Of a DNA stretch of 64,000 nt, positions 8,578 through 36,018 are shown in pieces (the stretch's first letter is position 1; each line of letters starts with the position of its first letter). The notes under the pieces are model-generated. The model ran no database searches. It had not been told where the DNA came from and saw only the letters and a program-made list of their open reading frames with translations. The stretch comes from an uncultured Pseudomonadales bacterium (lineage in GTDB: Bacteria; Pseudomonadota; Gammaproteobacteria; Pseudomonadales; Azotimanducaceae). The stretch lies in assembly GCA_964651595.1 (NCBI GenBank), contig CAZYYJ010000015.1:12304-76303 (forward strand), in the 5' to 3' direction. The translations under genes were made by a program, and so were the position numbers.

Positions 8578-11500
8578 ATGCGCAAAGCCACACAATGGGT
8601 CAAACCCTTCTCGTACACGCTGATTGCGCTGGTGCTGCCGGCGTTTGCCTATTTCATCGTGTTCATCGAGGTGCGCGAGGAAGCGCTCATTGAGCGCATC
8701 CACACGCAACTCGCCATGATTGCCACCCGCACCGAGAGTCGCCTCAATCAGGCGTTCCGCGTGGTGAAGAACGCTGACGCCCGGTACGACAAACGCAACA
8801 CCGTATATGCCCAGGGGGAGTTTGGCCTGGTCAACGCGGACTGTGCGGTCGATCGGCAAAACGAGACAGACCTGAAGGCGCGGCTCGACGGCATCGACGC
8901 CACGCTGGGTGAGGTGTGCATCAACGTTGATCTCGGCCTCGCCTACGAGGTCAGCGAATTTGGCGCAACGTTCTTCCACAATGCCGAAGGCACCGAGACA
9001 GATTCGCGGGAAGTGGTGACATCGGAGCAGCTCGACGGCCCCGAATACGAATTCCTGCAAACGTCCTACAAGCCGTCCGGACGCGCCGTACGCAGAGCGA
9101 GTGCGCCGGCAGCACAACTCGTGGGCTCGGTAGATGTTGCCGGGCGCTTTCACGACCTGCTGTTGATTTACGACGAGAAGACCGTCTACCAGAAGTTTCC
9201 CGAAAAGGGTCGGGTGGTGGACGTGGACGCCATTGATCCGGGTGCGGATGACGCGGAGGACGGCGATTCGGATGCTTCGCTGCAGCCCGTTGCGGATGCG
9301 CTGGACGGCATGCGCGTGAGTTACCAGGGCCGGACGTTTCTCGTGTTCGAGCAACCGATTGCGTTCAGCTTCACCGACAAGCAGTGGCGCATGCTGGGCC
9401 TCGTGGACGAGGCGGTGCTGAACGCGGAGAAGATGCGCTTCGAACGGGGCACGATGAGCCTGATTGTGCTCGCCGCAATCACCCTGCTTCTGTTGATTCC
9501 CTTTGCCAAAGTCTGGTTTCTGGGGCGCTACGGTTCCCTGACGCAGTCGGACATGCTGGCGCTGGTGGTGTGCGGCTTCAGCCTGGTTGCCCTTCTGACG
9601 CTCGTGCTGCTGCACTGGTGGACCGCTGAGCGGCTGCTGCACGCGTGGGATGCGCGCCTGGAGGCCGTGGCCACGGAAATGGCGGAGGATGTGGAAACCG
9701 AGATCCGCGGTGCCGTCACCCAGTTGGACGCAGCCATCCTGCCGATGCGCCAGGCGTTCGAGGCGACACTGGTCTACGGGGACAAGGCAAACTGGAGCAG
9801 CCGTTCCGGTTGTGACCGGCTCGCTAACTTCGAGGACAAGGAGGGGCTGGGCACCTTGGCCAGTAACCTTGCGGCCGGCGGCGCTGACTACGATGCCCGC
9901 GGTCTGACCATTGCGTATCCGCATCTGCGCATGGTGTACCTCATGGACCAGAAGGGCTGTCAGATCGTCAAATGGACCACCTACGACCGGTGGACGGCAC
10001 CGGGGCGGTTTGCAGATCGCGATTACTACCAGCGCCCGCGCCGTGACGGCCGGGTTGCACCGGCGTTGTACAGCATGGCCGACGTCCCCGACTTTTTTAT
10101 CGGTACCATCCAGTCGCGCACCACGGGAGACAAATCTGTCGTTTACAGCCTGCCGGTGGCAGACGTCTGCCCGCCCGAAGAAGCGGAAGGGGTCGAGGCG
10201 GCGTCGTGTGTCGCGGTGCTTTCCGCCACGGGTCTGCGCACCCTGGAGGCAGCCATGCCGAGTGGCTTCGGCTTTGCGCTCATAGACGGGCGGGGTGACA
10301 TTCTCTTTCACAGTGACGGCGGTACGACCGCGGAAACCAATCTGCGTGACGAGCTGGGCAATGGCATTCTACTGACCACGGCCATGCGCCAGGCTACGCC
10401 CCGGCCGGGGGCGGATTTCATCACCACCTACCGCGGGGTGACGCAGCGCTTCGAGGTGGTGCCGCTCACGGGCCTCAAAGGACCGAACTGGCACCTGGTG
10501 GTGTTTGCCGATCAGAACGCCGTGATACTGCCGTTGCTGGAAACTGCGGGCATCACCATTGTGTTGTGGCTGTTCGGCTTCGGCATCGCGTTGACCCTCT
10601 TCATGGGTTGGCTGCGGCGACGCCCCGTCGAAGCCAGGCGTAAGGGAGACGCAGACACCGCAGACGCGGCATCGGTCTCGCTGGCCGTGGTGATCGTCGC
10701 CGGCATGCTCTACCTCATTGCCATGCTCGCTTTTTCCCTCGACGAGCTGCTCGCGCTGGTGCTGGGCGGCTTATCCACGCTGCTGCTGATGGCTTGCGCG
10801 GTTCGCCACCTGCACAGCCACCTGCAGGACAAGACGCACAACGCGCGGCCCTTTGTGCTAGCGGGCATAGGCCTGTTACTGGGCGCGTCGATTCTGCCGG
10901 TGCACCTGCTGCATCAATACGTGGCGCGCGAAGCCGTGGACTCACTCACGAAGCTGCAGATCGACGAGCACTGGGTGGGGCAGGGGCGTCAGGCTCAGCT
11001 CAAGCGGGAGTGGCAGCGTCGGGTAGCGCTGCCCGAGGAAGCCAGCTATCGCGACGAGGCGCTCACGTTCTGGCCGACCTATTCGCTGTTCGGCGACAAG
11101 CTGGTGGCTGGAAGTGCGGCAGCGGATGCTCCGCTGGCTGCCCCGGACCGGAACCTGTTGGCGTTCATACCGGATTATTCCGCGGTGGCAGCCACCCAGC
11201 ATGCGATGTATCGCGTGCCCGATACGCGCTTTGCCGATGTCTGTCTCGAGGGTGCTACGAGCGTTTGCGGTGTCGGGGATCTGCGCCGGCAGATTCTGCG
11301 GGAGCGGGTGGAGAACTTTGCGTTCTACTTCTGGTTCTGGGTGGTAACGCTGCTGCTGGTGGGCGCGGTGTTGCTGACCTTGTGGTCGCTGCTGGTGCGC
11401 ACCCTGGGGATACGTGCCGAAGATTTTCTGCGCATCAGCAACTTCAGCCCGCCCGGTGAGAACGCGGGCGCGCGGGACATCATCTATGGGCTTGGAGAGT

Positions 11501-25593: not shown

Positions 25594-25670
25594 CGGAGTG
25601 TAGCTCAGCTTGGTAGAGCACTACGTTCGGGACGTAGGGGCCGGAGGTTCAAATCCTCTCACTCCGACCA
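25594..25670 (+). tRNA. tRNA-Pro (anticodon CGG)
   Basis: Perfect cloverleaf: 7-bp acceptor CGGAGTG/CACTCCG, D-arm GCTC/GAGC, anticodon loop TTCGGGA, T-arm GGAGG-TTCAAAT-CCTCT, discriminator A plus CCA. Confidence 0.9.
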
Positions 25671-25675
25671 ATTCC
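25626..25675 (+). repeat. attL-like direct repeat (3' part of tRNA-Pro)
   Basis: Identical 50-mer TTCGGGACGTAGGGGCCGGAGGTTCAAATCCTCTCACTCCGACCAATTCC. Confidence 0.85.
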
Positions 25676-26012: not shown

Positions 26013-27620
26013 TTAGGCCCGCGAAATCTGCTCAAACGAAACGCCGAACTTGTCTAGATACCGCTTCAATCTGTGCGAGTCATTGGTACTCGCTTTTTTC
26101 TCGCGAGAGACAGCAAACAACTGCCGACCTGCTTCCGCCATCGATCTGGACTTTCTACAAACACTGGCGACGTATCCCAGCTGAACACGATCAAATGGAT
26201 CTATCCCTAGTACAGCTTCAGCCCCAAGCAGCGTTGCCAAGAACTCTTCTCCTTCATTGCCGCCAGCAGCTCCGGCCTGCCATCGTAGCTTTAGTAAATC
26301 TATTTCTTGATCGACAATATCCTTGGAGATACGCCCGCCATCTGCCAATGTCGACATCCGCAAAACACTCGAGTTGAGATCGCGAAAGTTGGCGCGCCAT
26401 TCAGCTTCCCCAATGGCAAATTGAACGTAGCGGTCGCGAGCTTCCCGACTGAACCTAATCATAGTGCCAAGTCTCGACCGAGCGTTTTCGACTTCAAAGT
26501 CCAGGTTCGGTTCGATGTCTTCTACACGCTCCTTGAGAGGCGGAAGGTGATAAGTCCAGAGGTCGAGGCGGGCGATTAAATCTTCTCTAAACCGCCCCTC
26601 GCCCACCATCTGCCACAAGTTCTGATTTGTGCCAGCAATAAGCTGAAAGTTGCTGCTGACTTCTTTATCACTGCCGAGCGGAAAGAAGTGTTTCGTCTCA
26701 ATCGCATTGAGCAACATCGCTTGCTCTTCCACGCCCAGCTCGCCGATTTCATCTAGAAACAGAAGCCCATCGTCGGCCTCTCGTAACAGTCCGGCTCGAT
26801 CAGTTGTGGCGCCTGTGAAGGCACCTTTTGCGTGACCAAACAAAGTGGAACTCACCGCGTCTCCTCTTAGCGTCGCGCAGTTCACTGAGACAAAGTTACC
26901 GCCAAATTGAGTACGTTGTTTTTTTAACTCAAAGATCTGCTTCGCCAACTGCGACTTTCCTGCGCCAGTAGGACCGGTTAATAAGATTGGTTCGCTTGAT
27001 CGAATTGATACCTTCTCAATTTGCTCGATCATTGTGTTGAACGCTTTGTTTTTTGTTTGAATACCCTGCTTCAGGTACTCGGTACCCTCTAATTGTTCCA
27101 ATCGAAATCTTGAGGCGATCTGATCATATTTTGAGAGATCTAGATCGATGACATGATATTCGCCTACAGGAAGATCACCTTCCGTTGGCCGGCTGTTCGG
27201 TGGTGAGGTCTGGATTAAGGTTCCAGGCACGTATCGAGCTTCGGTTAGCAGGAACCAACAAATCTGAGCAACGTGAGTGCCCGTTGTCATATGAACCAGA
27301 TAACGCTCTGACTCTATGTCGAATTGATAGTCATCCGTAAAGGATCGAAGTACCCCATATACGTTCGCAAAGTCCCAAGGATCATCTTGCTTAATGACGT
27401 GCTGCACGACCATCGTTTCCGGCGAGATAGTTTCGATATCCCTGGTTACTTGGTCCGCAAGTGATTGGTAGCGCTCTTCTAGAAGCAATTCCAAGCGATC
27501 AACAACAAAGTCATCGTGCTGGCAGAGCGAAACCGTTGGCCGCCACGCATTCCATCTTTTTGAACCTCGCCCCCTGCGATCAAGGTTCGTACCCAACATG
27601 CCAATCACTACTGTCTTCAT
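26013..27620 (-). CDS. rtcR: RtcR, sigma-54-dependent transcriptional activator with N-terminal CARF domain
   Basis: AAA+ sigma-54 activator motifs (LLTGPTGAGKS, the GAFTGA loop as GAFTGATTD, ESELFGH-like), a C-terminal HTH, and a CARF-type N-terminus like RtcR. Divergently placed from rtcBA. Confidence 0.9.
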   Translation of the reverse strand: MKTVVIGMLGTNLDRRGRGSKRWNAWRPTVSLCQHDDFVVDRLELLLEERYQSLADQVTRDIETISPETMVVQHVIKQDDPWDFANVYGVLRSFTDDYQFDIESERYLVHMTTGTHVAQICWFLLTEARYVPGTLIQTSPPNSRPTEGDLPVGEYHVIDLDLSKYDQIASRFRLEQLEGTEYLKQGIQTKNKAFNTMIEQIEKVSIRSSEPILLTGPTGAGKSQLAKQIFELKKQRTQFGGNFVSVNCATLRGDAVSSTLFGHAKGAFTGATTDRAGLLREADDGLLFLDEIGELGVEEQAMLLNAIETKHFFPLGSDKEVSSNFQLIAGTNQNLWQMVGEGRFREDLIARLDLWTYHLPPLKERVEDIEPNLDFEVENARSRLGTMIRFSREARDRYVQFAIGEAEWRANFRDLNSSVLRMSTLADGGRISKDIVDQEIDLLKLRWQAGAAGGNEGEEFLATLLGAEAVLGIDPFDRVQLGYVASVCRKSRSMAEAGRQLFAVSREKKASTNDSHRLKRYLDKFGVSFEQISRA

Positions 27621-27754: not shown

Positions 27755-27770
27755 TGGCACGCTTATCGCT
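27755..27770 (+). promoter_or_regulatory. sigma-54 (-24/-12) promoter for rtcBA
   Basis: TGGCACgcttaTCGCT: GG-N10-GC spacing matches the RpoN consensus TGGCAC-N5-TTGC. Lies 50-65 bp upstream of the rtcB ATG and divergent from rtcR. Confidence 0.6.
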
Positions 27771-27821: not shown

Positions 27822-29066
27822 ATGAGCAACGAAGCAGACAGCATTGATCCTTCCTACGAATTGACCCGTGGAAGCGAGGTGGACATTAAGTCTTGGACTA
27901 GGGGCGTCGCTTTTGAAGACGAAGCCCGTGAGCAACTTAAGAACATCTCAACGTTGCCTTTCATTCATAAGTGGATCGCAGTCATGCCCGATGTCCATTT
28001 GGGCAAAGGCGCGACTATCGGCAGCGTTGTACCAACCATTGGCGCGGTGATTCCCGCTGCAGTTGGAGTGGATATCGGGTGCGGCATGATGGCTGTACGC
28101 ACCAGTCTTGTCGCAAATGACTTGCCCGATAGTTTGAGCGGGGTGCGCACCGCTGTTGAAGCAGCGGTCCCGCACGGGCGCTCGGGACGTGCCCGAGGCT
28201 CGAGAGATAAAGGTGCTTGGGGAAATGTTCCCGAAGACGTAGCCGCTGCTTGGACTGACTTGTCTGAAAAGTTCAGCGTGCTGTGTGACAAGCACCCTGT
28301 ATTGAAGAACACGAACAACGTTATTCACTTGGGTACGTTGGGAACCGGGAATCACTTCATCGAGATTTGTCTAGATGAAAAGGACTCTGTTTGGTTCATG
28401 TTGCACAGTGGATCGAGAGGAGTAGGTAACCGTATCGGTACTTACTTCATCGAGCAGGCGAGAAAGGAAATGGAGCGACACCAAATCAACTTGCCTGATC
28501 GTGACTTGGCCTACTTGTCCGAAGGCAGCGAAGGCTTTGGTGACTATGTCGAAGCAGTCGAGTGGGCGCAGACTTTTGCGCGCATCAACCGAGAAGTCAT
28601 GATGGCTCGAGTCATCGGGGCTGTTCGCAGCGAACTCGACATCGCCTTTGAGGCTCGACTGGAAGCCGTAAATTGCCACCACAACTACGTGAATCGTGAA
28701 ACTCACTATGGTGAAGATGTGTTGGTGACCAGGAAAGGTGCCGTGTCTGCTCGCAAGGGTCAGATGGGCATCATTCCCGGAAGCATGGGTGCTCGTTCAT
28801 TTATTGTTCGAGGACTTGGAAACGAAGAGAGTTTCTGTAGCTGCAGCCATGGTGCTGGTCGTGTCATGTCGCGTACAAAGGCAAAGAAACTGGTGAGCTT
28901 GGACGAACATGTCAAAGCAACCGAAGGAGTCGAATGTCGGAAGGACGCTGGAGTGATCGATGAAACGCCTGCCGCATACAAAGACATTGATGCAGTGATG
29001 GCTGCTCAGTCCGACCTTGTCGAAGTGGTTTACACGCTTAAGCAGGTTGTCTGTGTAAAAGGTTAG
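27822..29066 (+). CDS. rtcB: RtcB RNA-splicing ligase (3'-phosphate/5'-OH ligase)
   Basis: Conserved RtcB motifs: MPDVHLGKG, GTGNHF, HNY, SHGAGR. AAGGA Shine-Dalgarno. Confidence 0.92.
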   Translation: MSNEADSIDPSYELTRGSEVDIKSWTRGVAFEDEAREQLKNISTLPFIHKWIAVMPDVHLGKGATIGSVVPTIGAVIPAAVGVDIGCGMMAVRTSLVANDLPDSLSGVRTAVEAAVPHGRSGRARGSRDKGAWGNVPEDVAAAWTDLSEKFSVLCDKHPVLKNTNNVIHLGTLGTGNHFIEICLDEKDSVWFMLHSGSRGVGNRIGTYFIEQARKEMERHQINLPDRDLAYLSEGSEGFGDYVEAVEWAQTFARINREVMMARVIGAVRSELDIAFEARLEAVNCHHNYVNRETHYGEDVLVTRKGAVSARKGQMGIIPGSMGARSFIVRGLGNEESFCSCSHGAGRVMSRTKAKKLVSLDEHVKATEGVECRKDAGVIDETPAAYKDIDAVMAAQSDLVEVVYTLKQVVCVKG

Positions 29067-29137
29067 CCCATTGTCTATTCACTTTAGTGGGAGGGGCTGG
29101 CCAACCCCAATCGAAACTAAACCTAACGGTGACGAAA

Positions 29138-30190
29138 ATGGCAGCAATGGAAATTGACGGCAGTATGGGTGAAGGCGGCGGGCAAGTGCTCAGAACCGCC
29201 CTTACGCTGTCTATGTGCCTGACGCAGCCTATCGCCGTCACTAACATCCGCTCAGGGCGTAAAAAGTCAGGGTTGCTACGCCAACATCTCGCCGCCTTAA
29301 AAGCGGCTGCTGAGATATCGGATGCAGAACTAGAAGGTGCCGAGCTGGGATCTACAGAGATTAGGTTTTTGCCTGGTGTCGTGAAGTCTGGCTCTTACGA
29401 ATTCAAAATTGGTTCAGCTGGTAGTACGACGCTTTTGGCTCAAACGATCATACCTGCACTGAGCATGTTGAAGGAGCAAAGCAGCGTGACCGTGCATGGT
29501 GGTACTCACAACGGCATGGCTCCAAGTGTTGAGTTCGTAGAACTGGCTCTGGTCCCTTTGCTGAAGCGCGCCGGATTAGGCATGGATTCTGACTTGTTGC
29601 GATATGGATTTTATCCAAACGGGGGTGGCACCTGGAAAGCGACAGTCGAACCATGGACCAATGCTCGGTTTGTTGAACTCATCGTACGAGGCAAACCGGT
29701 TTCGAGAGAAGCAGTTGCCACTATCAGCAACCTGCAATCTCACATTGGTGAGCGTGAGCTTGAAAGAGTTGCCAAAAAGCTGGCCTGGACGAACGAAGAA
29801 CTGGTCCTCAAAGAGGTATCAGCGCCGGGCCCCGGGAACTTGCTTTCGTTGAGGTGCGTTTACGAAAACGTCACCGAGGTCTTCGAATCAGTGGGTTCCA
29901 TTGGTTTAAGCGCGGAGAGAGTGGCAGGAAGAGCAATAAGAGATGCTAAGCAATATGTTCAAGGTCGGCATGTTGTTGGTGAGTACTTGGCTGATCAGTT
30001 GCTTCTACCTCTGGTTTTAGGCGCTGGCGGCGTGTTCACCACCGGAGCGCTTAGCAGCCACTGTCGCACCAACATGGCTCTGATAAATCAGATGTTGGGC
30101 GCGGACTATTTCGAGATCGTCGAAGAGATGACAGAGGTGGGGCCGCACTCGACGATAAGAATCCCGAAAGGTTTAGCGCTGGCCCGTTAG
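29138..30190 (+). CDS. rtcA: RtcA RNA 3'-terminal phosphate cyclase
   Basis: N-terminal GEGGGQVLRTALTLS and LRQHL motifs of the RtcA family. Start chosen at MAAMEIDGS, in-frame within the 29087 ORF. Confidence 0.88.
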   Translation: MAAMEIDGSMGEGGGQVLRTALTLSMCLTQPIAVTNIRSGRKKSGLLRQHLAALKAAAEISDAELEGAELGSTEIRFLPGVVKSGSYEFKIGSAGSTTLLAQTIIPALSMLKEQSSVTVHGGTHNGMAPSVEFVELALVPLLKRAGLGMDSDLLRYGFYPNGGGTWKATVEPWTNARFVELIVRGKPVSREAVATISNLQSHIGERELERVAKKLAWTNEELVLKEVSAPGPGNLLSLRCVYENVTEVFESVGSIGLSAERVAGRAIRDAKQYVQGRHVVGEYLADQLLLPLVLGAGGVFTTGALSSHCRTNMALINQMLGADYFEIVEEMTEVGPHSTIRIPKGLALAR

Positions 30191-30304
30191 ACCCAAAGGA
30201 AAACCAGATGGTTTGTTAGCGGAACTGGCTCGTGAGTCCAGCCCGGCGAATGATGCAGCTGAACCTTGGTATTCATTCGTACCAACGAAACAATCTGAAG
30301 CAAT

Positions 30305-30377
30305 AGCTTGTTAGCTCAGTTGGTAGAGCGATCCATTTAGATTGGATTTGTCCCAGGTTCAATTCCTGGACAAGCAC
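30305..30377 (+). ncRNA. tRNA-like element (pseudo-tRNA / possible Y-RNA-like tRNA mimic), anticodon-position UAG, no CCA
   Basis: Cloverleaf: acceptor AGCTTGT/ACAAGCA with an A-A mismatch at 1-72, D-arm GCTC-AGTTGGTA-GAGC, anticodon arm ATCCA-TTTAGAT-TGGAT, 5-nt variable loop, T-arm CCAGG-TTCAATT-CCTGG. Lies immediately downstream of rtcA. Confidence 0.5.
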
Positions 30378-30827
30378 ATTGGGAAAAGCCCTATAACGGC
30401 TTGGGGTTCGACTCCCCTCGAAGGTGATTCCTTCAAAAAGACGGTGGCGCTCGCACATATGAGCTATGGCTTGTGTGTGTTTGCAAGAGCTCGAAGAACC
30501 GTATGGTCCGAGTGCGAAAGCCTTACTCTGGCCTCGCACATTCTGGCTTCACGCAGATTCGAGTTCCGGCTGGGTCGAACTGGCGTCAGTTCCCCTCGTC
30601 TGTTTTAGGAAGAGAGCTGCATTCTATAGTGAAAGCGTGCCGCTGATATGTATTCAACCCGTTGACGTGCAGCTGCACAAACGCGCGTTGACAACTTGAT
30701 GCTGCTGCTAAGTCTAAATGGGGATATGTCTCTTCTTACACAGAGGGTAACCACGTTCCAGAACGACAGAGTGCCACTCTTACTGTGACCGCCCCCACCC
30801 ATGGGGGAAATTTGAGGAGACATACAC

Positions 30828-31970: not shown

Positions 31971-32029
31971 GAGCGGAGTAAGCTGGCGGTAGCGCTTCGG
32001 CGCTGCCGTAGTTCTATCTGGAATGATCG

Positions 32030-32476
32030 ATGGATAACCGCAAAAAAACCTATGTCTTTGATATGGACGGTACGCTGGCGTTGGTGGACCATCGGCGAGG
32101 ACTCCTGGAGGGAGAGAAGCCAGACTGGCATAGCTTCAATAAGGCATCCCTACTTGATCCCCCGAACGAGCCTGTAAGCAATGTTCTCAAATCCTTGTTT
32201 GCGGCAGGCTTTCAGATTTGGATCGTTAGCGGTAGGAGCGATATTGCAGAGTTAGAAACTCGAGGGTGGCTTACAAAATACGAGATTCCCTTCCACCAAC
32301 TGTTGATGCGATCTGCTTCAGACAACAGACCAGACGATATCCTGAAAAAGGAGTGGGCGCTGAAGTATCAGTTTCCGGAAACAGTTTTAGCGGTTTTCGA
32401 TGACCGTAACTCCGTTGTAAATATGTGGCGAGACCTAAACATTCCTTGTTTCCAGGTCGCCGAAGGAGACTTTTAG
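32030..32476 (+). CDS. stand-alone HAD-family polynucleotide 3'-phosphatase (T4 Pnkp phosphatase-domain-like)
   Basis: DxDGT motif (FDMDGTL). C-terminal AVFDDRNSVVNMWRDLNIPCFQVAEGDF closely matches the C-terminus of the phage T4 Pnkp phosphatase domain (...DDR..VVEMWRR.GV.CWQVASGDF). Confidence 0.75.
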   Translation: MDNRKKTYVFDMDGTLALVDHRRGLLEGEKPDWHSFNKASLLDPPNEPVSNVLKSLFAAGFQIWIVSGRSDIAELETRGWLTKYEIPFHQLLMRSASDNRPDDILKKEWALKYQFPETVLAVFDDRNSVVNMWRDLNIPCFQVAEGDF

Positions 32477-33273
32477 TGTCAATTCCACAGGGTGTTCGAG
32501 ATGAGATCATTCGAAGGCTGAACGCCTGTGAACTAGAACACGGCGTCCGAATCATCTATTGCGCGGAATCTGGATCCAGGGCTTGGGGATTTGCCTCCCC
32601 CGACTCAGACTATGACGTGCGCTTTATTTACGTGCGGCCTAGCGATTGGTACTTGTCATTTGACGTTGAACGCAGGAGAGACGTCATCGAGTATCCGATT
32701 GTCGACGAAATCGATATCAATGGCTGGGACTTACGAAAAGCTCTCTATCTGTTTACTCGTACCAACGGCGCCTTATTGGAGTGGTTGGGAAGCCCTATTG
32801 TGTATAGAGAAATCGGAGAAACCGCTGCGAACCTTCGAGAACTGGCACGCTCACATATCAGCGATATCGCACTCTGTTACCACTACAGTCACATGGCCCG
32901 TCGCAACGCTCAACAATTCCTTGAGAAAGATGAAGTGAAACTCAAGAAATACTTCTACGTGCTGCGACCATTACTCGCGATTCGGTGGATTCAGAACGGT
33001 AAGGGAGTACCCCCTGTTCCGTTTGAAGAACTACTACACGCAGAAGCGCCAGCAAGCCTAATCGGTGAGGTAGAGAAGCTTCTTGAAGTGAAGAAGAGAA
33101 CCCCGGAGCTAGGAGTCGGACCTAGGATTCAGGAGATTAATGACTTCGTGTTTGGTGAGTTTGAGCGCTATGGAGACCAGTTCTCGGGGCAAGGTAGACC
33201 AGAGCAGGAAAGCTCGGAGCGACGGGAAGAACTTAACGATGTATTTCGGAGTGCGGTGAATACACAGCCCTAA
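32476..33273 (+). CDS. Pol-beta-superfamily nucleotidyltransferase (COG3541-like)
   Basis: GS-x9-DSDYD nucleotidyltransferase motif (ESGSRAWGFASPDSDYDVRF). GTG start overlaps the phosphatase stop (TAGTG), indicating translational coupling. Confidence 0.6.
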   Translation: MSIPQGVRDEIIRRLNACELEHGVRIIYCAESGSRAWGFASPDSDYDVRFIYVRPSDWYLSFDVERRRDVIEYPIVDEIDINGWDLRKALYLFTRTNGALLEWLGSPIVYREIGETAANLRELARSHISDIALCYHYSHMARRNAQQFLEKDEVKLKKYFYVLRPLLAIRWIQNGKGVPPVPFEELLHAEAPASLIGEVEKLLEVKKRTPELGVGPRIQEINDFVFGEFERYGDQFSGQGRPEQESSERREELNDVFRSAVNTQP

Positions 33274-33354: not shown

Positions 33355-35853
33355 ATGATCAATCCCGAAGAAGGCAGCAGCAACACAGACAACAACCTCG
33401 TAGCCGCAGAGTTACTGGACCGGTATGCGCAGCTCGATTTGTCCGACGCAAACGAAGCAGAGACGCGACTCAAACTAATAGATCGGATTTTCTTTGAGCT
33501 TTTAGGATGGTCACATGACGATGTTACTGTGGAGGAGCGTGTAACAGAGGATTCTGGGCTTGCATACACAGACTACGTTTTCCGAACCGCTAACACAGCC
33601 TTCATAGTTGAGGCCAAGCGGGTCGGCCAAACCTTCAAGTCTGTAGGAGATATGCGTCGTTCCAAACTTACAGGCAACTTGGTGAAAGGCCAGTCCGGGG
33701 ACGCGATCAAACAAGTCCGAGATTACTGCAGACAAAAGTCTATTCAATTTGCAGTCGCGACAAATGGAGCTCAGTGGGTCGTGTTTCCAGCAGTTCGAAC
33801 TGATCAGGTTAGTTTTGCAAACTCTTCTGCAATCATCTTCGACTCTCTGGCCACTGTTTTAGGCCAGGAGTTCGACGACTTCTACGAGCTGCTATCGCGC
33901 GACGCAGTTATAAATGGACATCTAGAACTCGAGCTTCTCGGTAGAAGTGAAGACCAGATCGAAGAACGAAGACTGAACGCATTTTATGGTTCGACTGGAA
34001 GATCAAAACGAAACCCCATCTATCCCCTGATTCAAGACGCTATTACGGAGGCATTTACTGACTCAATAATCGACAAGGACGATCAATTACTAGAGAAGTG
34101 CTACGTACCATCTGCCGATAGGATCAGGTTCGACAAAAAAATCAAAATGCATCTGCAGCGAGCGGATAGCCTATTTAGCAGGCAAGCGGCGAGACCGCTC
34201 CGCCGAAGCTCCGATGCCAAAGTACTTTCCGAATCAGTGGAGGCAGCTCGCGGCCTTGGGCGTCCTCTTGCAGTACTCGTTCTTGGGCCAGTTGGGGCGG
34301 GTAAGACAACTTACCTAAACTACTCCAGACGAGTTTCGGCGAAGGCGTTCTTTTCAGAGAAGAAAGACCGACTTTACCCTCAATGGATTCAAATTGATTT
34401 CCGCAAGCTCAGTGGTTCGGAATCGCCAACTGACTTTGTGTACTCATGCCTGCTGGAATACATGCGTGACGAGCCGCTCTTAAAAGATTGGGGGCGCGCT
34501 GTTCGGCCAGCTTACGGGAAGGACATCGAATCGCTAAAGGCCGGTCCCTTACATCTTTTGGCGAAGAACGAAGAAAAATTCGAAGAGAAAATCTCTGAAC
34601 TGGTGCTGAAAGACTATGAGTCTGTAACTCCGTATGTGGACAAAGTCCTTGGATGGCTTGGGGGTCACGAACCTATTTTCTTAGTTGTCGACAATGTGGA
34701 TCAATTTGAGTCCTCTGATTTTCAATCAAAGATTTTCTCCGAATGTATTGCGATCGCCAGCCGAATTGGACTGAATCTGGTGATGTCGATGCGCGAATCA
34801 ACCTATATCGAACATCGTCACTCAGCGACATTTGACGCGTTCGATTTCGACCCAATTCAGATCGAACCCCCTCAGATTGGGCCGGTTCTTTCTAGGCGCT
34901 TTTTCGTTGCAAAAAACATCCTCAAAAATCGGCCCGGCGAGTTTCGTACACAGAGTGGACCGCTGTTTCGCGCTGCCGATTTGTCGGTTTTCATGGATGT
35001 CGTACAGAGTTCGGTTCTCGGCACCGAAGTTGGAACACGGATAGAAGTCCTTGCTGACGGCGATGTGAGGCTAGCGTTGCGCATGACCAGGGAGTTTCTA
35101 GAGTCCGGCTATTCAGATCCCGCAAAAGCAATTGCAGTAGTCGAACGCGGAGAGACTTACACAATGCCCAAACACGAGGCCCTCCGCTCGATCATCCTGG
35201 GGAACAAAACAACATACTCTGAGGAATTGTCTGTATTGGGGAACCCCTTTGACTCACGCCAAGGTATTACCAATCTCCAGTTGTTAAGAACGTTCATTTT
35301 AAATGCGTTAGTGAGCCTGAGCAGTGATGGAAGATTTAAGAAACTTGATGGCCCGACTATAAGGGATGAGTGCAACAAGATAGGCGTTTCTCAGGACATA
35401 ACGCTAAACACACTAAAGGACCTGTGTCGCCTGAACTTTGTCAGCACGTCGTCCCACGCAGAAGCTGATTTCACCTCGAGCTTCTTCCCGAGCCGATTGG
35501 GCGGCTTCATCATCCGCGACTTAATGGCAGATATGACTTTCGTGGAGAACGTGCTTCTAGATACATTTATCGACGAAAAAGAGACCTGGGAAATCCTGAG
35601 AAAGCTAAGCGACGAAATACAGGCGGAACGACAGCCAACAAAACGACTCAAAGTCAGGGTCAAACGTGTTAAAGCTTTCTACGAATACATGGAGGAGCTA
35701 TACACTCCACTAGCAGCCGAAGCCCAACGGAGAGCTCTACCAAAAGAGTGGTGTAGTAATCCGCTTAAAGAGAACAAGACTCGGCTCTGGAACAACTGTA
35801 ATCAGGCGATCAAGTCCTCCACCAGGCACTATCCCGCAAAGGCCAAAAGGTAA
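33355..35853 (+). CDS. PD-(D/E)xK nuclease (HsdR-N/Mrr-like) / P-loop NTPase fusion protein, 832 aa
   Basis: N-terminal EAETRLKLIDRIFFELLGW...YTDYVF...FIVEAKR, a restriction-endonuclease-like D...EAK motif. Central Walker A VLGPVGAGKTT and Walker B IFLVVDNVDQFE. Long alpha-helical C-terminus. Confidence 0.6.
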   Translation: MINPEEGSSNTDNNLVAAELLDRYAQLDLSDANEAETRLKLIDRIFFELLGWSHDDVTVEERVTEDSGLAYTDYVFRTANTAFIVEAKRVGQTFKSVGDMRRSKLTGNLVKGQSGDAIKQVRDYCRQKSIQFAVATNGAQWVVFPAVRTDQVSFANSSAIIFDSLATVLGQEFDDFYELLSRDAVINGHLELELLGRSEDQIEERRLNAFYGSTGRSKRNPIYPLIQDAITEAFTDSIIDKDDQLLEKCYVPSADRIRFDKKIKMHLQRADSLFSRQAARPLRRSSDAKVLSESVEAARGLGRPLAVLVLGPVGAGKTTYLNYSRRVSAKAFFSEKKDRLYPQWIQIDFRKLSGSESPTDFVYSCLLEYMRDEPLLKDWGRAVRPAYGKDIESLKAGPLHLLAKNEEKFEEKISELVLKDYESVTPYVDKVLGWLGGHEPIFLVVDNVDQFESSDFQSKIFSECIAIASRIGLNLVMSMRESTYIEHRHSATFDAFDFDPIQIEPPQIGPVLSRRFFVAKNILKNRPGEFRTQSGPLFRAADLSVFMDVVQSSVLGTEVGTRIEVLADGDVRLALRMTREFLESGYSDPAKAIAVVERGETYTMPKHEALRSIILGNKTTYSEELSVLGNPFDSRQGITNLQLLRTFILNALVSLSSDGRFKKLDGPTIRDECNKIGVSQDITLNTLKDLCRLNFVSTSSHAEADFTSSFFPSRLGGFIIRDLMADMTFVENVLLDTFIDEKETWEILRKLSDEIQAERQPTKRLKVRVKRVKAFYEYMEELYTPLAAEAQRRALPKEWCSNPLKENKTRLWNNCNQAIKSSTRHYPAKAKR

Positions 35854-35968
35854 CTCGATAAAATCTCGATAACTCAGTCCTGCTTAGTCCTGCTCTGTCG
35901 TGCAATTCGCTACAGTCGCACTCTAAATAAAGTTAATTAAATCAATAGGTTAGATAGTATATTTAACT

Positions 35969-36018
35969 TTCGGGACGTAGGGGCCGGAGGTTCAAATCCT
36001 CTCACTCCGACCAATTCC
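35969..36018 (+). repeat. attR-like direct repeat (copy of tRNA-Pro 3' end)
   Basis: Exact 50-bp match to 25626..25675. Flanking sequence diverges immediately on both sides. Confidence 0.85.

Follow-up and report, generated by a model that had tools for sequence, protein, structure and literature searches.

The stretch of DNA analysed here, 64,000 nucleotides (nt) long and called the window below, comes from an uncultured Pseudomonadales bacterium of the family Azotimanducaceae (assembly GCA_964651595.1, contig CAZYYJ010000015.1, positions 12,304 to 76,303 of the forward strand). We found that an open reading frame (ORF) in the window encodes a stand-alone homologue of the phosphatase domain of phage T4 polynucleotide kinase-phosphatase (Pnkp), in which the DxDxT active site is intact. 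The ORF that directly follows is, judging from its sequence, a gene for RlaP (RNA-ligase-associated Pol-beta), a nucleotidyltransferase of the Pol-beta type, and the layout of the junction indicates that the two genes are arranged for coupled translation. They are the last genes of an operon controlled by RtcR and sigma-54 that runs through rtcB, rtcA, a tRNA-like RNA, a Band-7 gene, the phosphatase gene and the RlaP gene (Table 1). Systems of this type have already been published, and the coupling of the phosphatase to RlaP is a rare variant of them.

A stand-alone phosphatase of the T4 Pnkp type

An earlier reading made from the letters alone (the sequence-only reading) had likened the first of these proteins, a HAD protein, to the T4 Pnkp phosphatase and had pointed to its DxDGT motif, and this identity was borne out by Pfam, by a search of the PDB and by the predicted fold. 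The product begins with MDNRKKTYVFDMDGTLALV and ends with AVFDDRNSVVNMWRDLNIPCFQVAEGDF, and the motif lies near the N terminus as FDMDGT. The Pfam family HAD_PNKP (PF25109) matched it with an E value of 1e-29 and a score of 104 bits (cut-off 27.6) over positions 2-143 of the 143 in the model, and the second-best family, LNS2, scored 25 bits. Three proteins were matched in the PDB sequence search, all of them end to end (4xrp, 5uj0 and 1ltq). The match to C. gingivalis Pnkp1 (4xrp) had an E value of 3.7e-20 and 39% identity, and T4 Pnkp was matched at 9.5e-14 (1ltq) and, as the isolated phosphatase, at 1.5e-14 (5uj0) with about 30-33% identity; the C-terminal GDF is shared with both. An AlphaFold (AF2) model built on 25 homologues reached a predicted local distance difference test score (pLDDT) of 92.6. 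When this model was searched with Foldseek, the best 21 PDB matches were all Pnkp1 or T4 Pnkp, with E values from 2e-13, for the top match to C. gingivalis Pnkp1, to 4e-9 and template modelling (TM) scores of 0.74-0.82. The first other HAD enzyme appeared at 9e-7, more than two orders of magnitude in E value behind the Pnkp matches. A place in a deoxyribonucleotidase or sugar-phosphatase clade was thus ruled out by hidden Markov model, PDB sequence search and predicted fold.

Residues with described roles in T4 Pnkp (PMC3592404) have counterparts in the window protein. D11 aligns with the nucleophile D165 and D13 with the general acid D167, while S67 (in the sequence VSGR) and K106 align with S211 and K258, both of which contact the phosphate. 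In the sequence FDDR, D125 aligns with the Mg-binding D278 and D124 with D277, the partner of D278. All of these residues were invariant across the 25 homologues except S67, which was conserved in at least 90% of them.

A wider search at E values up to 0.001 returned 8921 cluster representatives of the phosphatase family. The best 150 of them are mostly stand-alone proteins of about 150 amino acids, and the longer relatives checked among these 150 are all kinase-phosphatase fusions with AAA_33 kinase domains. The 148-amino-acid window product corresponds to the phosphatase domain alone, and the P-loop 5'-kinase domain of the bifunctional Pnkp was not found in the protein. In a phage collection, 3440 records matched the phosphatase, and among the matches listed most are annotated as polynucleotide kinase/phosphatase or pseT. 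Searches of NCBIfam and PADLOC gave no match for the phosphatase or for RlaP.

RlaP and the junction between the two genes

The second ORF matched the Pfam family RlaP (PF10127) with an E value of 1.2e-85 and 287.6 bits (cut-off 23) over positions 2-248 of the 249 in the model, which agrees with the Pol-beta-type nucleotidyltransferase proposed in the sequence-only reading. In 18 homologues of 38-92% identity, the GS motif ESGSR (S32, G33 and S34) and the residues D45, D47 and D80 do not vary. The RlaP family has three strictly conserved aspartates (PMC12776372), and D45, D47 and D80 may be the three catalytic ones; this assignment is tentative because D69 is likewise invariant in the 18 homologues. 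A PDB sequence search with RlaP gave no match, and a Foldseek search returned weak, generic nucleotidyltransferase matches only. The possibility of an aminoglycoside nucleotidyltransferase (ANT) was considered and rejected: no ANT family was matched in Pfam, and ANT(4'') and similar enzymes appeared in Foldseek at E values of 2e-3 or higher, with TM scores of 0.3-0.4 and 11% identity.

The ORF list had placed the start of RlaP at GTG 32425. We rejected this start in favour of GTG 32476, because from there the Pfam match begins at residue 8 and the homologues (261-268 amino acids) start at the same position. A phantom ORF at -52 likewise follows unrelated HAD_PNKP genes, and it recurs because the C-terminal codons of the phosphatase are conserved. 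With the start at 32476, the phosphatase stop codon TAG (32474-32476) and the RlaP start codon GTG (32476-32478) have one base in common. This TAGTG overlap had been noticed from the letters, and it is also kept in related loci (surveyed loci carry L numbers), namely L081 (TAATG), L002 (TGATG) and L165 (TAGTG). In the same three loci the AAGGAG ribosome-binding site within the 3' end of the phosphatase gene is kept as GAAGGAG or GAGGGAG. The two ORFs are not due to chance, given their E values and the presence of homologues with 60-93% identity in the same gene order. The rtcB gene lies 3.4 kb upstream of RlaP on the same strand with no opposite-strand gene between them, and RlaP is likewise associated with an RNA ligase gene in L081, L165, L049, L075 and L138-162.

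Occurrence across genomes

To place the pair in a wider context, the neighbourhoods of the best 80 of 403 phosphatase relatives in GTDB species genomes were surveyed. Within 10 kb of the phosphatase, rtcB was present in 6 of the 80 and RlaP in 4. Several arrangements occur in the phosphatase's own clade, defined by at least 65% identity to the window phosphatase. The full operon is found in the window, L081 and L165, and in four further cases the phosphatase and RlaP are probably on one contig, judged by equal contig sizes. In L002 the phosphatase and RlaP are paired, the 10 kb upstream contain no rtc gene, and the contig ends inside RlaP. RlaP is absent from loci in which the phosphatase follows Band-7 (L166-168 and L006) and from those in which it follows rtcA without Band-7 (L007, L082 and L169-171). 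In L003 the rtc genes and Band-7 are separated from the phosphatase by a 4.5-kb insertion, L008 retains decayed rtc remnants, and in L001, L004 and L005 the phosphatase stands alone. The rtcB gene of L082 (7621-8864) is divided into two overlapping ORFs of 160 and 268 amino acids, perhaps by a frameshift or through faulty assembly, and the rtcA and phosphatase genes of this locus are intact.

The phosphatase in an rtc context recurs in three distant lineages. In the Undibacterium loci L049 and L075, rtcR is followed on the other strand by Band-7, the phosphatase, rtcB, rtcA and RlaP, and a tRNA associated with band 7 (b7a-tRNA) is called before Band-7 in L075 and not in L049. An Elusimicrobiaceae contig (L077) carries RlaP, an ORF of 223 amino acids and the phosphatase on one strand, with a divergent rtcB adjoining. 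As a separate observation, L058 has a gene for a Thg1-like 3'-5' nucleotidyltransferase (9180-9971) directly 5' of its HAD_PNKP gene (10007-10447), with rtcB near.

RlaP was also surveyed in 80 metagenome loci with 48-70% identity. Band-7 and/or rtc genes accompany it in 14 of these loci, none of which has a HAD_PNKP gene. In 9 of the 14, a gene for a nucleotidyltransferase of the CCA-adding type with an HD domain (HD-CCA) lies upstream of RlaP, in the position taken by the Pnkp-type phosphatase gene in the window. The gene is intact and directly abuts RlaP in 7 of the 9 loci, where it encodes an enzyme of 421-439 amino acids (PolyA_pol, RNA-binding and HD domains) that ends where RlaP starts (L138, 4020-5285; L139 and L140, 6675-7958; equivalents in L147-L150). 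In L155 and L156 it is split into two ORFs, the nearer of which ends 86-104 nt upstream of RlaP. Further RtcB paralogues of greater divergence, some of which appear split, are encoded on the opposite strand a few kb downstream of the rtc operon (L149, 10930-14832; L150, 8857-9978; L155, 13894-15009; L156, 13337-14452; L139, 15929-16777; all on the minus strand). A SpoU methylase gene (8887-9486) follows RlaP in L140, and L144 (355-756) and L159 (978-1403) each have, directly 5' of RlaP, a gene for a small zinc-finger protein of the treble-clef type (zf_Tbcl).

These surveys qualify two claims of the sequence-only reading. The coupled pair had been described as next to RtcB/RtcA, and the full operon indeed recurs in L081 and L165, but in close relatives the phosphatase gene stays next to rtcBA where RlaP is missing. 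The combination of enzymes had also been called unusual. RlaP in RtcB operons is published and common, so that this description holds only for the stand-alone Pnkp-type phosphatase, which is uncommon there.

A possible 'heal then refill' branch

The phosphatase of T4 Pnkp converts RNA 3'-phosphate, 2'-phosphate and 2',3'-cyclic phosphate ends into hydroxyls and also hydrolyses 3'-dTMP, and RtcB strictly requires a 3'-phosphate (PMC3592404). According to a preprint of December 2025, RlaP of Pseudomonas, with activity shown for the P. fluorescens and P. aeruginosa proteins, adds one or two nucleoside monophosphates (NMPs) to RNA 3'-OH ends and does not accept 3'-phosphorylated RNA as a substrate (PMC12776372). 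On an annealed tRNA mimic, the enzyme acts preferentially at the break in the anticodon loop, and pre-treatment with it led to more aminoacylation of the repaired tRNA (PMC12776372). The preprint itself flags the 3'-OH product as unusable by RtcB, and no phosphatase is mentioned anywhere in it (PMC12776372). As recounted in citing papers, Burroughs and Aravind (2016) named RlaP for its association with RNA ligases and predicted that it restores nucleotides lost before ligation (PMC12776372, PMC7824862). Two gaps are left by the RlaP study: ribotoxin-cut RNAs bear 3'- or cyclic phosphates, which RlaP cannot extend, and RlaP products bear a 3'-OH, which RtcB cannot seal. The window locus addresses the first gap, with a Pnkp-type 3'-phosphatase gene directly upstream of RlaP and apparently coupled to it in translation.

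We consider it rather probable, from the enzyme identities and the gene arrangement, that the two products act in the order 'heal then refill', in which the phosphatase makes a 3'-OH and RlaP refills the end. RNA cut by a ribotoxin, most likely tRNA, would end in a 2',3'-cyclic, 3'- or 2'-phosphate. The phosphatase would take the phosphate off through an aspartyl-phosphate intermediate, like T4 Pnkp, and would probably in this way make the 3'-OH ends that RlaP needs. RlaP would then add one or two NMPs to the new 3'-OH, replacing nucleotides that are missing from the break or from the 3' terminus of the tRNA, and coupled translation would yield the two enzymes together. For ends of the ribotoxin type, action of the phosphatase before RlaP would be chemically required, because 3'-phosphorylated RNAs are not RlaP substrates. 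Of the roles suggested in the sequence-only reading, 3'-OH generation followed by tailing fits the RlaP substrate data of PMC12776372. The HD-CCA enzyme of the sister operons may have an analogous healing role; PMC6961547, citing Yakunin 2004, states that the HD domain of the CCA-adding enzyme from E. coli takes 2',3'-cyclic phosphate off tRNA ends. Together, the window and the sister operons would offer a natural, testable 'heal then refill' module, and the members of the compact operon (rtcR, rtcB, rtcA, tRNA-like RNA, Band-7, phosphatase and RlaP) could be reconstituted together. Since the components and the type of system are already known, what is gained is an increment and not a new concept.

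Alternative explanations

A number of observations weigh against 'heal then refill'. No route leads from a 3'-OH end to sealing by RtcB: RtcB needs a 3'-phosphate, which the product of the phosphatase and RlaP does not have, and a Pfam scan of the proteins of the genomic island that holds the operon found neither a 5'-kinase nor an ATP-dependent ligase. The locus therefore sharpens the second gap, because the operon both makes and destroys the substrate of RtcB. A 'heal then refill' branch may imply an undiscovered re-phosphorylation or other sealing of 3'-OH ends in RtcB systems, or its targets may instead be lesions with no need for ligation, for instance tRNA 3' termini that have been damaged. 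The genomic record also speaks on this side. No phosphatase-RlaP fusion is present among the best 150 of the 8921 cluster representatives, and most of the best 80 HAD_PNKP loci have unrelated surroundings, with dUTPase or response-regulator-like genes among the neighbours. A HAD_PNKP gene was near RlaP in none of the 80 metagenome RlaP loci, and RlaP occurs alone elsewhere (L164, 83% identity; L163, 65%). Several loci of the phosphatase's own clade that have no RlaP retain the phosphatase beside rtcA or Band-7 (L007, L082 and L166-171), and the phosphatase is bound more tightly to rtcBA than to RlaP.

Because of this tighter bond, a regulatory reading stays alive, although we consider it unlikely: the phosphatase would work mainly with RtcR, RtcB and RtcA, either erasing the cyclic-phosphate tRNA-fragment signal that acts on the CARF-like domain of RtcR, as a negative feedback, or cleaning up ends that RtcB cannot use, such as 2'-phosphates. 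PMC7790460 describes damaged tRNAs that regulate the rtc operon through RtcR, which has a divergent CARF domain, and tRNA fragments with 2',3'-cyclic phosphate ends that accumulate under activating conditions. Removal of such an end, and of a 2'-phosphate, is within the known chemistry of the T4 enzyme (PMC3592404), and the loci of the own clade that lack RlaP are what this reading would lead one to expect. However, the one-base overlap with RlaP, conserved in four loci, points to co-production with RlaP, and RtcA, according to PMC3854526, already converts 2'-phosphate to cyclic phosphate. A version that joins both sides, in which the phosphatase would be the off-switch of the Rtc response more than a repair enzyme, ending RtcR signalling as ring nucleases do for CARF effectors and passing the 3'-OH ends on to RlaP, seems to us still more unlikely.

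Two further explanations would separate the pair from repair by refilling. In one, the phosphatase and RlaP would dispose of fragments, the removal of phosphate and the addition of a short tail opening irreparable RNA to 3'-5' exonucleases or preventing its mis-ligation by RtcB. Phosphate groups at the 3' end hinder exonucleases, the 3'-OH product is incompatible with RtcB, and the lack of a kinase and an ATP-dependent ligase in the island would be in keeping with disposal. But RlaP adds just 1-2 nt, prefers the anticodon-loop break and raises the aminoacylation of repaired tRNA (PMC12776372), and the neighbouring genes encode repair enzymes, so that we hold disposal to be improbable. Less probable again is that the HAD protein acts on small molecules or mononucleotides (3'-NMP or pNp) and is next to RlaP incidentally. 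Hydrolysis of 3'-dTMP by T4 Pnkp (PMC3592404) and the distant stand-alone HAD_PNKP genes located beside dUTPase/dCTP-deaminase-like and other unrelated genes are consistent with it, whereas the HAD protein's nearest relatives in structure and in sequence all heal polynucleotide ends in RNA-repair systems, its association with rtc operons is found again in three distant lineages, and the translational coupling to RlaP appears to be conserved.

Comparison with known RNA repair systems

The window protein is like the C-terminal phosphatase domain of T4 Pnkp (PseT; 1ltq and 5uj0) in fold, DxDxT site and expected chemistry. Unlike T4 Pnkp, it has neither a kinase domain nor a partner ATP-dependent ligase (Rnl1), and it belongs to an RtcB operon, whose ligase needs the phosphate that the phosphatase removes. 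Its best solved relative is the Pnkp1 phosphatase domain of the C. gingivalis Pnkp1-Rnl-Hen1 complex (4xrp/4xru), which is a bacterial RNA repair system. Pnkp1, however, is a kinase-phosphatase fusion whose partners are the Hen1 methylase and an ATP-dependent ligase, and here none of these is present.

The window RlaP and that of Pseudomonas (PMC12776372) share the Pfam family, the conserved aspartates and the association with RtcB, RtcA and RtcR, and the P. aeruginosa rtc locus also has a Band-7 gene (PMC13086221). The Pseudomonas operons as described have no phosphatase and carry RlaP between rtcB and rtcA (PMC12776372), whereas in the window RlaP is the last gene and is coupled to a Pnkp-type phosphatase gene. 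According to bioRxiv 10.1101/312249, the combination of RtcB, a Band-7 protein and a 'band 7-associated tRNA' was reported by Burroughs and Aravind (2016), and the ligase, Band-7 protein, tRNA-like RNA and RlaP nucleotidyltransferase of those systems, so far as citing papers recount them, are common to the window. By the definition in bioRxiv 10.1101/312249, the window operon belongs to the RtcB/Band-7/b7a-tRNA systems, with Pfam matches to RtcB and Band_7 and an adjacent tRNA-like RNA with covariation. A stand-alone HAD_PNKP gene, which the window has, is found in a minority of the RtcB/Band-7/RlaP operons sampled. The sister operons (L138-141 and L147-150) likewise consist of RtcR, b7a-tRNA, Band-7, RtcB and RtcA and end in an enzyme of a cyclic-phosphate-removing type followed by RlaP. 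They differ from the window in that this enzyme is an HD domain fused to a class II CCA-adding nucleotidyltransferase and not a HAD protein, in that Band-7 precedes rtcB, and in having two or three tRNA-like genes in tandem in the leader. In the literature searched, there was nothing specific on a Pnkp-type HAD phosphatase in rtc operons or on RtcB/RtcR with band-7. A stand-alone phosphatase coupled to RlaP is likewise not described in the searchable literature, in which the 2016 survey is represented by the papers citing it.

The operon, its island and the tRNA-like RNA

Table 1. Features of the window in and around the rtc operon (positions are those of the window)
Feature	Position	Strand	Evidence
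tRNA-Pro(CGG), island integration site	25594..25670	+	ARAGORN and Rfam
rtcR, sigma-54 activator with RtcR (CARF-type) N-terminal domain	26013..27620	-	Pfam RtcR 1.8e-80, Sigma54_activat 8.7e-49
sigma-54-like -24/-12 element TGGCACGCTTATCGC	27755..27769	+	1 mismatch to TGGCAC-N5-TTGC
rtcB, 3'-phosphate/5'-OH RNA ligase	27822..29066	+	Pfam RtcB 2.6e-129
rtcA, RNA 3'-terminal phosphate cyclase	29087..30190	+	Pfam RTC 1.7e-69, RTC_insert 2.1e-11
Band-7-associated tRNA-like RNA (b7a-tRNA type), 73-nt cloverleaf, anticodon UAG	30305..30377	+	Rfam, ARAGORN
SPFH/Band-7 protein, 380 amino acids	30828..31970	+	Pfam Band_7 1.7e-26
GC-rich 10-bp hairpin with UUCG-type loop, between Band-7 stop and phosphatase start	31986..32009	+	terminator-like scan
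Predicted stand-alone T4-Pnkp-type (DxDxT/HAD) polynucleotide 3'-phosphatase, 148 amino acids	32030..32476	+	Pfam, PDB, fold
AAGGAG ribosome-binding site for RlaP, within the phosphatase 3' end	32463..32468	+	read from sequence, 7 nt 5' of GTG
RlaP (RNA-ligase-associated Pol-beta) nucleotidyltransferase, 265 amino acids	32476..33273	+	Pfam RlaP
tRNA-Pro 3' end, right-hand copy, island boundary	35966..36018	+	direct repeat family D1, 98% identity

The 3' part of the tRNA-Pro gene (25623-25675) is repeated directly, over 53 nt and with 98% identity, at 35966-36018, and the GC content is about 0.50 between the repeats and 0.58-0.65 outside them. These flanking repeats and the lower GC content indicate a 10.3-kb island in tRNA-Pro, which contains the whole rtc cluster and one extra ORF of 832 amino acids. 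No integrase-like product was noticed among the listed ORFs of the island, the smaller of which were not scanned against protein families. The sigma-54-like element lies 53 nt upstream of the rtcB ATG; its match is not significant across the window and is only positionally plausible. A scan for sigma-70 promoters in the 27.5-33.5 kb interval returned no sites. The hairpin between Band-7 and the phosphatase keeps its stem in L081 with a different loop. Given its weak T tail, it may act as an attenuator or stabiliser and not as a full terminator.

The N-terminal part of the 832-amino-acid ORF (33355-35853, plus strand) resembles a restriction endonuclease (weak HSDR_N; PADLOC Type IIG REase, 1.5e-07), and a further region resembles a P-loop/STAND NTPase. 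The ORF was rejected as a component of the system, as it was not found after RlaP in L081 or L165 or at the L166 locus; it is cargo of the island and may be a defence gene.

The tRNA-like RNA is located in the 640-nt spacer between rtcA and Band-7. It scored 59 bits against the Rfam tRNA family and was labelled tRNA-Leu(tag) by ARAGORN, and its minimum-free-energy fold is a cloverleaf. A genuine tRNA-Leu was rejected, since there is no long variable arm, and the element fits the published description of the 'band 7-associated tRNA'. Homologues are present at equivalent operon positions in at least 15 loci, often as two or three tandem copies. Among 16 copies, compensatory changes were found in 15 of 21 pairs, and the anticodon loop varies in both sequence and length; the copy in L081 has a different anticodon loop and a compensatory change in the stem. 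In an alignment of five relatives, conserved blocks flank the element at about 30213-30250 and 30385-30445. The upstream flank contains an invariant CTGGCTCGTGAGTCCAG hairpin and the downstream flank a half-tRNA that resembles an anticodon arm and a T arm, and the conservation of these flanks suggests a larger structured RNA.

In the rtcR/Band-7 leader of other loci, two or three tRNA-like genes of about 72 nt each are arranged head to tail with overlaps of 1-4 nt (L139, 2232-2449; L140, 2700-2913; L142, 2076-2302; L148 and L149, about 2706-2923; L155, 2900-3043). Their anticodons are odd (tta, two-base loops, tag and tcg), and in four arrays (L139-L142) the first tRNA-like copy ends in an encoded ACCA.

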